A DNA stretch of 64,000 nt from Escherichia coli (GTDB lineage: Bacteria; Pseudomonadota; Gammaproteobacteria; Enterobacterales; Enterobacteriaceae), in assembly GCF_003991155.1 (NCBI RefSeq), contig NZ_CP031293.1. One strand, given 5' to 3'. This document shows, in pieces, positions 53,467 to 62,623 of the stretch. The notes below the pieces were generated by a model. That model searched no databases and was not told where the DNA came from. It saw only the letters and a list, made by a program, of their open reading frames with translations. The translations under genes were made by a program, and so were the position numbers. Each line of letters starts with the position of its first letter. The stretch's first letter is position 1.

Positions 53467-54392
53467 AAATCCACCCCGTAAATCCAGTCTGTGTTTGTCA
53501 GGTCGAGTTTTGGTTTGCTAGCTGTCACGCCTGCCTGTTGCTTGTTACGGTTGATTTCGAGTTGGGTCCACTTGTCGCGGAGTTTGGCCGGACTTAGCAC
53601 GTTACCGGACCAGAAGTTGTCCTGGCATGCCCAGCGGAACAGCACGCACATGTCGCGGTGGTTACGTCCGTCACGTTCACGCATCAGGCGGATATCGTTA
53701 GCCCACCCTGCAAAATTCGGTTTTCTGGCTGATGGCGCGATGGTCTTCACCATGTCAAACATCCACTCTGCGGCGGTCAGGTCTTCTGCTGTCCCCCACC
53801 TGCTGCCGCTCTGAATTGCAGCATCTGGTTTCTCCACAGGAAGGTCGTTTTCTGGCTGGTCAGAGGATTCGCCAGAATTCTCGGACGAAAAAGGTTTTAT
53901 ATTGTCTTTTGTTAGTTTGTCTTTTGTGTTTACCTGATTCGGGTAAACGTCTTTACCTGATTTGGGTAAACTTTTTTTACCTGATTCAGGTAAATTTACC
54001 TCTTTCAGGTAAACTTTATTTTTCTTACCTGATTCGGGTAATGTTGACCATTCACTGACCACATTATTAATGCCGATATTCCGCCCGCTCTGAATAAAAA
54101 TCCCACGCTTTACCAGAACACTTTTTGCAGCAGAACACTTGTGCGGCAATATCCCGGTTAACTCGGAAAGTTGCTCGTTGCTCACCCAATCCATTTTTTT
54201 ATTAAAGCCATATGTTTTGCGCATGACAGCCAGGAAGACCAGAAGCTGGTGCTGTGTTAATCCGGCCAGCATCACAGCTTCCAGCAACTCATTTGCAATG
54301 CGCGTATAACCATCATCGAGATCTGCCACGCGCCGCTCCTTTTGTGCCGCATCCGGCACTGGAAAATTGAATATCTCAGCAGTGTTTGCCAT
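53463..54392 (-). CDS. O: Replication initiator O-like, non-lambda specificity
   Basis: Start MANTAEIFNFPVPDAAQKERRVADLDDGY...; iteron array inside gene; C-terminus lambda-O-like. Confidence 0.8.
   Translation of the reverse strand: MANTAEIFNFPVPDAAQKERRVADLDDGYTRIANELLEAVMLAGLTQHQLLVFLAVMRKTYGFNKKMDWVSNEQLSELTGILPHKCSAAKSVLVKRGIFIQSGRNIGINNVVSEWSTLPESGKKNKVYLKEVNLPESGKKSLPKSGKDVYPNQVNTKDKLTKDNIKPFSSENSGESSDQPENDLPVEKPDAAIQSGSRWGTAEDLTAAEWMFDMVKTIAPSARKPNFAGWANDIRLMRERDGRNHRDMCVLFRWACQDNFWSGNVLSPAKLRDKWTQLEINRNKQQAGVTASKPKLDLTNTDWIYGVDL
53929..54044. repeat. Replication origin iterons inside O
   Basis: Four to five ~20-bp repeats TTACCTGATTCGGGTAAAC (variants TTTGGG, TCAGG) at roughly 24-bp spacing. 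Confidence 0.75.
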
Positions 54393-55018: not shown

Positions 55019-55099
55019 AATTGATTCCTTTAGTTTGAATTGACTGTTAATCAGTCTGTTAAGTTGATTGCTTATTGTTAAAGAGCGTGAAATGGAAAT

Positions 55100-55330: not shown

Positions 55331-55434
55331 AACAACCTCCGTGGTTAATCTGAACCAAGATTAAAACTATGGTTGTTTTTAGTCAACAACCATTTTCGTT
55401 TGATGGAATAAAACCTTGGTTGTACATTTGGTCT
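55331..55434. promoter_or_regulatory. OR-like operator/promoter region between cro and cI
   Basis: Inverted repeats TTAATCTGAACCAAGATTAA (55345-55364) and ATGGTTGTT-N7-AACAACCAT (55369-55393). Confidence 0.6.
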
Positions 55435-56124
55435 ATGAAAACAACACTCTCAGAAAGACTTAAAGAAGCCAGATCAGCGCGAGGCCTTACACAAAAGGCA
55501 CTTGGGGATTTGGTTGGGGTTAGCCAGGCTGCTATTCAGAAAATCGAAACAGGGAAAGCTAACCAAACAACTAAAATCGTGGAGATCGCGAACGCTTTGG
55601 GTGTGCGCGCAGAATGGTTATCTTCTGGCATTGGAAATATGTCAGACAGTACAGTGCAACCAATACAATCAACTCTCAGCCATTCCAAATACTTCAAGAT
55701 TGACGTTCTTGATATAGAAGTCAGTGCTGGGCCGGGAGTCATCAACCGTGAGTTTGTAGAAGTTCTACGCTCGGTTGAGTACTCGTTTGACGATGCTCGT
55801 CACATGTTCGATGGTAGGAAAGCGGAAAATATCCGCATCATTAACGTGCGTGGTGACAGCATGTCAGGAACGATCGAACCAGGTGATCTGCTGTTCGTTG
55901 ATATCACTGTTAAATCTTTCGACGGTGATGGTATCTATGCGTTTCTGTACGACGACACAGCCCATGTAAAGCGCCTGCAAATGATGAAGGATAAGCTGCT
56001 GGTCATCTCTGATAACAAAAGCTACTCACCGTGGGACCCGATCGAGAAAGACGAGATGAACCGGGTGTTCATCTTCGGTAAGGTTATTGGGAGCATGCCG
56101 CAGACGTACAGGAAACACGGATAA
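55435..56124 (+). CDS. cI: CI-like repressor with S24 LexA-type autopeptidase domain
   Basis: Start MKTTLSERLKEARSARGLTQKALGDLVGVSQAAIQKIE (HTH); C-terminal GDSM and KRL catalytic motifs. Confidence 0.85.
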   Translation: MKTTLSERLKEARSARGLTQKALGDLVGVSQAAIQKIETGKANQTTKIVEIANALGVRAEWLSSGIGNMSDSTVQPIQSTLSHSKYFKIDVLDIEVSAGPGVINREFVEVLRSVEYSFDDARHMFDGRKAENIRIINVRGDSMSGTIEPGDLLFVDITVKSFDGDGIYAFLYDDTAHVKRLQMMKDKLLVISDNKSYSPWDPIEKDEMNRVFIFGKVIGSMPQTYRKHG

Positions 56125-56204: not shown

Positions 56205-56474
56205 ATGAGTGATAAAAAACTTATTAAAAAATCAAATAACTGTGTAGATGCATATGCTGATGCATTTGGATATTCATCTTTTGGGGAAGATGACGATCGC
56301 TTAGGCTCCATATCTTTCTTTCAGCATGTTACAGAATGGGACGCTGATGGTAGTAATGACACTGAAAGCGTAAAGTACAACATTGCAACAATTCGCATGA
56401 CGGAAGATTTAATGCTTAAACTCGCTGACTTTATTCGCGATCAGCATGATAGAGCTAAAACCAATAAGTCATAA
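56205..56474 (+). CDS. Hypothetical acidic protein, first gene in the rexAB position
   Basis: 89-aa AT-rich ORF MSDKKLIKKSNNCVDAYADAFGYSSFGEDDD... Confidence 0.5.
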   Translation: MSDKKLIKKSNNCVDAYADAFGYSSFGEDDDRLGSISFFQHVTEWDADGSNDTESVKYNIATIRMTEDLMLKLADFIRDQHDRAKTNKS

Positions 56475-56482
56475 TATTAACA

Positions 56483-56923
56483 ATGAAATACGGTTATTAC
56501 GAAGCTCCAAACCTAACTGAAAAGCTTGAACAAGCGGCAAGATCATCATCTTTGCACACCGCAGCATTTTCTCAATCAGCTGGTATGTCTGGCGATAATG
56601 TACCTATGCTACAATCAAGTGGTAGCGGTGGCTCTGGGAGTAATAATGTGCTTGAATCAAAAGTTGCAAAGCTTGAGTCTGATGTGTCCTACATCCGACG
56701 TGACGTTGATGAGCTTAAGACAGATGTCAAATCTATCGACAGAAACATGATCGCTGTTCTGGAGCGACTCGATTCAATAAAAGAGTCACTAGCCAAAAAA
56801 CCATCCATCGATGCTATCGATAAAAAGATTTCAGACGCAAAGCTTGCGGTATTGCTTGGTGTTCCAGCAATCATCGCTGCAGGAACAGGGCTTTATAAGC
56901 TATCAATGTACTTTTTTCTTTAG
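56483..56923 (+). CDS. Hypothetical coiled-coil protein with C-terminal TM anchor, second gene in the rexAB position
   Basis: 146 aa; heptad-like VLESKVAKLESDVSYIRRDVDELKTDVKSIDRNM; hydrophobic tail LAVLLGVPAIIAAGTGLYKLSMYFFL. Confidence 0.55.
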   Translation: MKYGYYEAPNLTEKLEQAARSSSLHTAAFSQSAGMSGDNVPMLQSSGSGGSGSNNVLESKVAKLESDVSYIRRDVDELKTDVKSIDRNMIAVLERLDSIKESLAKKPSIDAIDKKISDAKLAVLLGVPAIIAAGTGLYKLSMYFFL

Positions 56924-57002: not shown

Positions 57003-57031
57003 AAACCCGGCCCCGTGCCGGGTTTTCTTTT
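57003..57031 (+). terminator. Rho-independent terminator ending the cI operon
   Basis: AAACCCGGC-CCCGT-GCCGGGTTT hairpin followed by TTCTTTTG. Confidence 0.75.
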
Positions 57032-57158: not shown

Positions 57159-57202
57159 AACAACTTTTGTTGTTGACGATAAAACAACTATAGTTTTAAA
57201 TA
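57159..57202 (+). promoter_or_regulatory. Candidate OL/pL: operator palindrome plus promoter elements
   Basis: AACAAC-TTTT-GTTGTT palindrome overlapping a TTGACG -35; TAAATA 18 bp downstream; half-sites shared with OR. Confidence 0.4.
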
Positions 57203-57274
57203 AGTTCATCGCAACAACACAACGATACGGCAACCACCTGATTCACCGTTGCGATGACCGCTTAGATCCGCAGC

Positions 57275-57685
57275 TTGAATTTCAGCAGGCTCCGGGGAGT
57301 GCGAGGGGTGAAGCGGACGCGTGAACGTCGGTGTGACCAGCTGAAATCAACTCAACACTTCATACCTCAGTCGCTTCAACGAGGCGGCTTAGTTATGACA
57401 ACCGGCGGCCATCCACCGCCTGAATACGCGCAGAAGTCTCTATATGTTCAGCAGCCCAGCTTACGGGCAGGAGTTTTTATGGTTCATCAACATTACGGTA
57501 CGCAGACCGTTAATCGCGGTGCGGTCATGCCAGGAATGCTGGTCAAACACAAAGATGGTACCTGGACTGCATCGGCTAATTTACGCGGACGGCTTTATCT
57601 GCATCGCGGCGTCGAGCGCACTTATACCCGTGACTTGCTCGTGGAAATTTTTCTCGACGGACGCGGCAACGGCCTGAATCACTAA
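57275..57685 (+). CDS. Hypothetical early-left protein with Arg-rich motif, possible N-like antiterminator
   Basis: ORF with non-ATG start; N-terminal [12 protein letters not shown] resembles the lambda N Arg-rich motif; rest of protein unlike N. Confidence 0.35.
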
Positions 57686-59676: not shown

Positions 59677-60234
59677 ATGACTGATTTCACCGGAAGCAAT
59701 ACTCCTGCCGAACATCGCGACAGCTGGCGCACACCACCAGAGATTTTTGCTGCGCTTAATGCAGAGTTCGTTTTTCAACTTGATGCTGCAGCCAGCGAAA
59801 AAAACCGACTATGTCGGCTTTTTATCTCACAGGAGCAGAACACATTAACCACTTCATGGCCTGAAGCAATGGGATATGCCTCTGGTTATGTCTGGTTGAA
59901 TCCACCATACAGCAATATTTCCCCTTTTGTGAAAAAGGCAGCCACTGAAAACAAATTCAGTAGTGTGGGATGTGTAATGTTATTGCCTGCTGACACATCT
60001 GTCGGATGGTTTCATGAAGCGATACAAACCGCCAGTGAGGTCAGATTCATCACGGCAGGACGACTGGCATTTATTAACCCACTCACCGGGAAACCCGTCA
60101 GTGGAAATAATAAAGGCTCGATGCTCATTATCTGGCACCCATACCCCCGTACACACTGCCACTTTACGACCGTTGATCGTGGAGAGTTGATGGCGTTCGG
60201 CTCAAGGATTCTTGCCCGTCGGGAGGCTGCATGA
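59677..60234 (+). CDS. Phage N6-adenine DNA methyltransferase (Dam-like)
   Basis: 185-aa ORF with catalytic NPPY motif (WLNPPYSN). Confidence 0.7.
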   Translation: MTDFTGSNTPAEHRDSWRTPPEIFAALNAEFVFQLDAAASEKNRLCRLFISQEQNTLTTSWPEAMGYASGYVWLNPPYSNISPFVKKAATENKFSSVGCVMLLPADTSVGWFHEAIQTASEVRFITAGRLAFINPLTGKPVSGNNKGSMLIIWHPYPRTHCHFTTVDRGELMAFGSRILARREAA

Positions 60235-60310
60235 CAACCACGGAATGCATTTTTCTGGCAGCGGGCTTCATATTCTGTGTGCTTATGCTTGCCGACATGG
60301 GACTTGTTCA

Positions 60311-60526
60311 ATGACACCTCAGCAGGAAAACGCCCTTCGCAGCATTGCCCGTCAGGCTAATTCTGAAATCAAAAAAGCCAGACAGCAGTTTCCGGATAAA
60401 AACGTCGATGACATTTGCCGTAGCGTACTGAAGAAGCACCGCGAAACGGTAACGCTGATGGGATTCACACCGACTCATTTAAGCCTGGCGATCGGCATGT
60501 TAAACGGCGTCTTTAAGGAGCGATGA
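60311..60526 (+). CDS. Hypothetical small phage protein
   Basis: 71 aa from internal Met MTPQQENALRSIARQANSEIKKARQ... Confidence 0.4.
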   Translation: MTPQQENALRSIARQANSEIKKARQQFPDKNVDDICRSVLKKHRETVTLMGFTPTHLSLAIGMLNGVFKER

Positions 60527-60624
60527 ACATGAAAAGCAAAATCATCAGGGAGCTACAGGCTCCTTTTTTATTGTTCGCATTCATCCTCAAGCGTATTAAC
60601 CAACAATTCAGGGATTAATGGAAG

Positions 60625-62546: not shown

Positions 62547-62623
62547 TGGCGCGCCCTGCAGGATTCGAACCTGCGGCCCACGACTTAGAAGGTCGTTGCT
62601 CTATCCAACTGAGCTAAGGGCGC
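62547..62623 (-). tRNA. argU: tRNA-Arg (anticodon UCU), attL site
   Basis: Reverse complement GCGCCCTTAGCTCAGTTGGATAGAGCAACGACCTTCTAAGTCGTGGGCCGCAGGTTCGAATCCTGCAGGGCGCGCCA; 3' 45 nt duplicated at 13823. Confidence 0.9.

Follow-up and report, generated by a model that had tools for sequence, protein, structure and literature searches.

The interval between pL and gam in a lambda-like Escherichia coli prophage: a kil gene preceded by a structured leader RNA that may act as an antiterminator

The stretch of DNA analysed here, below called the window, comprises 64,000 nucleotides from Escherichia coli and contains a complete lambda-like prophage situated at a tRNA-Arg gene (62550-62623, - strand). 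The gene order is cro, cI, two immunity-region morons, a terminator, pL, the reported ORF, gam (57761), bet, and exo. The annotation of E. coli NZ_CP029747 shows a prophage with this same layout, and positions 57209-57400 are matched there at 100% identity. The features that the following text refers to are these:

55075-55087, - strand: consensus boxA, CGCTCTTTAACAA / CGCUCUUUAACAA, in the pR transcript, 12 nt after the cro stop codon
55100-55330, - strand: cro
55369-56124, + strand: cI
57003-57025: strong terminator between the morons and pL
57173-57201, + strand: pL promoter as predicted from the sequence, with -35 TTGACG (57173-57178), a 17-nt spacer and -10 TTAAAT (57196-57201)
57208-57251, + strand: 5' end of the pL transcript, C/A-rich, AUCGCAACAACACAACGAU...
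57252-57348, + strand: module X, a structured leader RNA and candidate cis-acting antiterminator
57259-57303, + strand: stem I of module X, with the hairpin 57268-57277/57286-57295, the loop AAUUUCAG and a hypervariable bulge at 57292
57304-57342, + strand: stem II of module X, with the tip helix 57313-57318/57327-57332
57360-57398, + strand: conserved hairpin, at the base of which CAUA pairs with UAUG (the mini-ORF start codon), with an invariant GAG on top
57395-57421, + strand: conserved start of a polyproline mini-ORF (MTTGGHPPP), overlapping a hairpin GGCGG-CCAUCCA-CCGCC at 57404-57420
57469-57473, + strand: predicted Shine-Dalgarno sequence of kil, AGGAG, 5 nt before the ATG
57479-57685, + strand: kil, 68 aa, KilR family, first gene of the pL operon (PHROG_294, NF008465, RefSeq CDS)
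60547-60575, + strand: putative intrinsic terminator in the pL operon, an 8-bp stem followed by UUUUUUAUUGUU, upstream of a TraR-like gene and int

The two moron-like ORFs between cI and pL are found at 56205-56474 (PHROG_4231) and 56483-56923 (PHROG_3556), both on the + strand, and the product of the second has a coiled coil and a hydrophobic C-terminal tail. Other immunity types carry different cargo in this position, for instance a Ser/Thr kinase and a PP2C phosphatase in locus L009. The prophage has an integrase of the intD type, and emrE adjoins ren, the ren-emrE junction being taken from a comparison with locus L220. As a whole the prophage presumably resembles an intact relative of the DLP12 remnant of K-12. 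The terminator at 60547-60575 lies between a small ORF (60212-60526) and the gene for the TraR/DksA-like protein.

From the promoter sequence we infer that transcription from pL starts at A57208. The geometry of this promoter equals that of phi80 pL (TTGACC-17-TTTAAT-6-A), and the homology across phages of three to four operator/immunity types starts exactly at 57208/57209. A divergent relative of AUCGAAACGAAACAUCGAC, the leader start common to phages of the phi80, HK639, and clade-2 types (for the clades of module X, see below), forms the first part of the transcript (57208-57251). In phages of immunity types C and D this part has been replaced or has diverged.

It was originally predicted that one gene with a non-ATG start, possibly encoding an N-type antiterminator, fills the space between pL and gam. 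The ORF does exist; it runs from a TTG at 57275 to a stop codon ending at 57685 (136 aa), and contains the Arg-rich stretch of 12 residues, and no other ORF between pL and gam reaches a useful size. It is not a single gene, however, as only residues 69-136 correspond to a conserved protein, Kil. The 136-codon frame is kil (the last 68 codons) read together with the untranslated pL leader (the first 68 codons). In the long ORF the PHROG_294 (Kil) profile matches residues 60-136, and it matches the 68-aa product as a whole (E 7.7e-37); RefSeq annotates exactly this 207-nt CDS. The NCBIfam profile NF008465 (FtsZ inhibitor, KilR) aligns residues 1-68 of Kil with profile positions 1-70 of 73 (E 5.8e-17), but the score of 61.5 bits is below the curated cut-off of 92, and Kil is therefore a relative and not an equivalog. 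The window gene thus shares with the KilR/Kil proteins (Rac kilR; PHROG_294; NF008465) a full-length match and a position just upstream of gam-bet-exo, and it differs from the KilR equivalogs by this score and by being the first gene after pL. Orthologues of Kil that are 37-85% identical and have wholly different upstream DNA begin at the same methionine, and the nucleotide diversity of kil is 0.0064 at codon positions 1 and 2 versus 0.051 at position 3. Going by the family names, the product would be an inhibitor of FtsZ and cell division. We are confident that the leader is non-coding and that kil starts at the ATG at 57479. The long Kil CDSs that extend over the leader in some phage records, 420 nt in Perceval and 282 nt in Turner, would then be over-extended.

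As for the first 68 codons, no Shine-Dalgarno sequence is seen before the TTG at 57275. In a survey of 115 related IMG/VR loci, comprising 98 distinct sequences, the frame from this TTG to kil is interrupted in 47, by a TAG at 57368 in 29, by other stop codons in two, and by frameshifting indels in 16. The segregating sites of the upstream frame are distributed 11:7:6 over the codon positions, and the diversity at positions 1 and 2 is 0.024, compared to 0.0064 in kil and 0.012 in gam. In the second clade of the leader the same frame reads TTG AAT TTC AGC AGG TGA, and an internal GTG is followed by TAA. By our own estimate, (61/64)^68, a run of 68 stop-free codons before kil has a probability of about 4% by chance. 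RefSeq places 57209-57400 under no feature in any of the 2222 genomes that have this leader. The check for N-family similarity that the original prediction called for was made with BLASTP and with PHROG and Pfam profiles. When the ORF was compared with lambda N and phi80 N by BLASTP, no alignment was obtained at E<=100, and neither residues 1-68 nor residues 1-40 matched any PHROG or Pfam profile. A conserved translatable frame with an Arg-rich motif, which characterizes the lambda N family, is thus not found here. What was read as an Arg-rich motif results from translating a G-rich structured RNA, module X, within which the codons in question (57293-57328) lie.

The original prediction also stated that boxA- and boxB-like elements are missing. 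This is correct for the pL leader, where no lambda-type boxB occurs and no boxA was found even with two mismatches to the consensus core allowed, but not for the pR transcript, where the boxA after cro has the perfect consensus. Only about 0.1 chance matches to such a boxA are expected per window, and it is conserved in 58 related loci. A boxB-like hairpin beside it (GACUG-AUUAA-CAGUC) was discarded as a private 12-nt duplication present in few loci only. The combination of boxA and boxB in both early transcripts that is expected for the lambda N family was accordingly not observed. Antitermination by boxA and Nus factors without N operates in rrn operons and in CRISPR leaders. The window resembles these systems in having a boxA, placed right after cro, and no conserved boxB; this likeness concerns pR and not the reported interval. 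In a phage without N, the pR boxA could mediate antitermination by Nus factors only on the pR side, or it could be left over from an N-type module.

Module X occurs in two clades. Clade 1 is that of the window. When 57208-57358 was used in a BLAST search against loci without the window-type leader, a copy with 81% identity was found in L110, and a pattern scan then defined clade 2 as 14 loci with at least seven different pL/operator sequences. When metagenomes were scanned for further clades, a single additional clade-2 copy was obtained. The two clades form a gapless alignment of 97 nt with about 81% identity, and from this RNAalifold predicts two adjacent stem-loops, at 57259-57303 and 57304-57342. 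Three pairs are changed on both sides: 57272-57291 (AU to CG), 57273-57290 (GC to AU), and 57317-57328 (AU to GC). Wobble variants are found at 57274 and 57313, while the unpaired position 57292 varies freely. The G.G mismatch at 57315-57330 is U.G in one extra clade-2 variant and G-C in three others. When a slightly narrower structure was scored, 91% of the cells were paired versus 27-47% in slid controls, and none of 500 shuffles reached the observed covariation, which is essentially one split between two clades (the three double changes) plus the wobble variants. Compensatory pairs in excess of controls, as expected for a structured cis-regulatory RNA, are thus found both in module X, based on its two clades, and in the hairpin at 57360-57398.

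Some other properties of the module count against its proposed role. The common variant G57308A breaks a predicted pair in the lower helix of stem II (57307-57309/57336-57338), and the folding energy is unremarkable, with z-scores of -0.4 (57208-57358) and -0.3 (57262-57356), and -1.55 in a third test. The diversity of 57275-57358 is 0.030, which is modestly lower than the synonymous value (about 0.05) and equal to that of the kil-gam spacer. Rfam contains no family matching module X. Taken together, it seems probable that module X is a structured RNA.

Some other pairings and matches in the leader were considered and rejected. A long-range helix between UUUCAGCAGG and CCAGCUGAAA (57280-57289 with 57337-57346) is disfavored, as both RNAalifold and the compensatory changes favor the local hairpin 57268-57295. 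A C(UNCG)G tetraloop at 57290-57295 is not consistent with 57292 being a variable bulge, and its closing pairs are unfit. A 15-nt match of the leader (57269-57283) to the end of cro (55109-55095) has an E-value of 3.2 and was treated as chance. The sRNA svsR of NC-SV prophages is located at the 3' end of cI and is outside this leader.

Immediately downstream of module X, the hairpin at 57360-57398 has the same architecture in 12 phages with different stem sequences. Seven of its 16 pairs are changed on both sides, 97% of the cells are paired versus 31-52% when the structure is slid, none of 500 shuffles reaches this, and each phage has one sense copy. By the predicted pairing the base of the hairpin sequesters the AUG of the mini-ORF. 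In a sample drawn without regard to this sequence, the start of the mini-ORF is almost invariant, with its most frequent variants in third codon positions. Its length and its frame relative to kil vary between loci; in the window it runs in frame into kil by chance, while elsewhere it ends after 21-43 codons. In other phages the element is usually found after a tL1-like intrinsic terminator, or directly after a put-like RNA, and in the phi80 record (M11919, L357 1366-1426) the 't-L1' signal given by the depositor starts inside it. Our guess is that it might be a translation-sensitive terminator or attenuator.

Of 5426 complete E. coli genomes, 2222 or about 41% have the clade-1 leader (57209-57400 at >=95% identity), and this clade is restricted to E. 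coli. An 18-mer from the module had only 12 matches in 100,044 representative genomes, and the genomes concerned were unrelated and for the most part GC-rich. Module X has at least seven types of pL/operator context in clade 2 and three to four in clade 1, and its position in the transcript is always the same. The phages that have this leader are viable, as Turner, 4A7, and others are isolates. Perceval, which also carries it, is an active prophage (PMC9928086).

The clade-2 leaders show which elements other phages have in the slot of module X. The start of the clade-2 transcript has about 53 nt in common with the HK639 leader and about 43 nt with that of phi80, and the pL sequences are identical up to the swap point between phi80 and L110 and between HK639 and L239. 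After the shared stretch phi80 continues with nutL and N and HK639 with an annotated putL-like RNA, while L110 and L239 continue with module X. By the annotation of M11919, nutL of phi80 starts at the point of the shared leader at which the module begins in L110, and L110 rejoins the HK639 sequence after the cassette. Among the 176 loci with the leader start ATCGAAACGAAACATCGAYAGCTGAG, 109 have a boxB-like hairpin (GGCGGAC-AGCAA-GUCGCC) and a boxA, 55 a put-like RNA, and 12 module X; phi80, with nutL and N annotated in its record, is one of the 109.

A covariance model built from eight put sequences scored 99.7 bits for HK639, 93 for HK022 putL, and 54.7 for HK022 putR. In the window its best score was 5.3 bits between 44 and 64 kb, searched with filters off, and it found nothing in the module-X loci. 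Conversely, the module-X model found nothing in the N-type or put-type loci, and in each phage with the module it detected a single copy, located in the pL leader. The three elements, nutL with N, put, and module X, are mutually exclusive in this slot. In all seven clade-2 loci with enough sequence, the module is followed by genes, then by a terminator with a GC stem and a T-run, and then by a hairpin of the 57360 type. This intrinsic terminator is 0.7-1.9 kb downstream of module X. No put-like match was found in these seven loci, and no N-like ORF in the two clade-2 loci that were inspected, L110 and L238.

The put RNAs are cis-encoded in the pL leaders of the N-less lambdoid phages HK022 and HK639, and they give a factor-independent read-through of terminators that is blocked by mutations in the zinc-binding domain of the beta' subunit (PMC9378689). 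Like put, module X is a pL-leader RNA located upstream of intrinsic terminators in a phage without N, each of them is predicted to form two adjacent irregular stem-loops, and they occupy the identical slot of an otherwise identical leader (HK639 compared to L239 and L110). They differ when it comes to sequence and covariance-model similarity, of which there is none, and to length (about 84-97 nt for module X, about 70 for put). Module X has a conserved G-rich strand, GGGGAGUGCGAGGGGUG, that put does not have. It is also far commoner in complete E. coli genomes, where approximately 2209-2222 of the 5426 carry module X and 115 carry put. Compared with the lambda-type system of phi80, N and nutL take up the same slot just downstream of pL, but the window lacks an N protein and a conserved Arg-rich frame, and neither boxA nor boxB is present in its pL leader.

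The remark in the original prediction that the phage may be N-independent agrees with these observations. No N gene is annotated anywhere in the RefSeq prophage with the same layout (NZ_CP029747), the phages are viable, and an element is present in the slot. The reading that we prefer, with a probability of about 55%, is that the interval holds kil and a 270-nt untranslated leader in which module X serves as a cis-acting antiterminator, and not an N gene. It is based on the slot, the mutual exclusivity, the downstream terminators, and the viability of the phages. For the antiterminator function of module X taken alone, where position and mutual exclusivity carry the argument, we would rate the chances as about even. 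In the proposed mechanism, nascent module X would fold as transcription from pL begins and would act in cis on the transcribing RNA polymerase, as the put RNA does in HK022 and HK639. The resulting complex would read through downstream terminators without any N protein, so that kil-gam-bet-exo and int would be expressed. In the window phage the intrinsic terminator at 60547 would be one candidate target and the element at 57360-57440 another, provided that the latter is tL1-like, while the target in clade 2 would be the canonical intrinsic terminator 0.7-1.9 kb downstream. It also counts against an antiterminator that the window phage has no intrinsic terminator between module X and kil, that there is no second copy of the module on the pR side, and that the module does not resemble put. 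In the annotated part of the HK639 record the put-like feature is likewise found only in the pL operon.

Tentatively, module X may represent a third, so far undescribed, class of early antitermination in lambdoid phages, an RNA unrelated in sequence to put that needs no phage protein and that, among E. coli prophages, would be more common than any other such device. To our knowledge, put is the only family of protein-independent phage antiterminator RNAs, and structural studies have been made of how it works. A further RNA of this function, unrelated to put, would bear on the number of ways in which RNAs can reprogram RNA polymerase. Such an RNA would also explain how the recombination and excision genes are expressed in common N-less prophages at the DLP12 site and the att-lambda site (Perceval, 4A7, Turner), and it would provide a compact new part for synthetic control of read-through.

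The most serious alternative, although an unlikely one, is that module X is a regulatory leader, affecting mRNA stability or processing or the translation of Kil, or serving as a target or sponge for an sRNA or for Hfq/CsrA. That kil is toxic and here the first gene would fit such a role, as would the C/A-rich leader start, the second regulatory-looking element (hairpin and mini-ORF) directly after the module, and the absence of a terminator between module and kil in the window phage. In clade 2, however, the module is separated from kil by 1-2 kb and several unrelated genes, and varied sequences follow it; because of this distance and variation module X is not tied to kil. A regulatory role would also leave unexplained why the module so precisely and exclusively replaces nutL and N or put.

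Still less probably, module X would be a nut-like site in the RNA and would require a trans-acting protein, encoded by the phage or by the host. The module does occupy the nutL slot, and given the consensus boxA on the pR side Nus factors may be engaged. However, the module is adjoined by no conserved partner gene, and the downstream ORFs differ among L110, L238, and the window. Moreover, the pL leader has no boxA, the pR operon has no second copy, and the complete prophage has no annotated N-like protein.

We give little credence to the notion that module X has no function of its own and is a recently spread remnant hitch-hiking in a successful prophage lineage. The low divergence, the restriction of clade 1 to E. 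coli, the near absence of the 18-mer from the 100,044 representative genomes, and a diversity similar to that of other spacers would agree with this. A remnant would not be expected to keep its pairing by compensatory changes in two clades that are only about 81% identical, nor to hold a constant transcript position behind so many pL/operator types (at least seven in clade 2, three to four in clade 1).

A short Arg-rich peptide of 20 residues encoded inside the module from a GTG at 57308, and acting as a mini RNA-binding factor, was considered because four of the six common polymorphisms in its 20 codons are synonymous (p of about 0.04 by our own binomial calculation). The start codon is preceded by an SD-like GGGGAG, with the start 8 nt later, and in 12 of the 98 distinct sequences the variant G57308A, which co-occurs with the TAG at 57368, turns it into an ATG. 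Against this, the GTG of clade 2 is directly followed by a stop codon and the TTG frame there is closed after five codons, whereas compensatory changes preserve the RNA pairs. Within clade 1, TAA, R>W, and R>C changes are found, and the peptide has no family match, all of which makes its existence very doubtful. As to the originally predicted divergent N-type protein of 136 aa starting from the TTG at 57275, the open frame and a stretch (KRTRERR) which we take to resemble the arginine-rich motifs of lambda and P22 N weigh next to nothing against the lack of similarity to the N proteins and of any profile match for residues 1-68, the missing Shine-Dalgarno sequence, the frame broken in 47 of 115 loci, a C-terminal half that is Kil with its own conserved start at 57479, whereby the Arg-rich segment drops out of the protein, and a pL leader with no nut site. 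Both observations that the original prediction named as refuting it, a lack of N-family similarity and another start codon that excludes the Arg-rich segment, have thus been made, and the N-type reading is refuted.

A few further observations were made on the leaders and the early region. In many clade-2 leaders (L234, L238, L239-L242, L246, and others), an ORF of three codons, ATG AAG CAC TAA, with a strong Shine-Dalgarno sequence (GGAG) is found directly after module X. The pL leaders of L106 and L023 are hybrids in which the 5' part of a put-like RNA is joined directly to a consensus boxA (…CGAACGGCGCACCACTACCGATTCGTCATGCTCTTTAACAA…), which suggests recombination between put and nut cassettes. 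Inside the O-like replication gene of the window prophage there is a cluster of TTACCTGATTCGGGTAA-like inverted repeats (53927-54044, +/-). These give spurious weak Rfam matches to mir-26 and rliD and are probably origin iterons.
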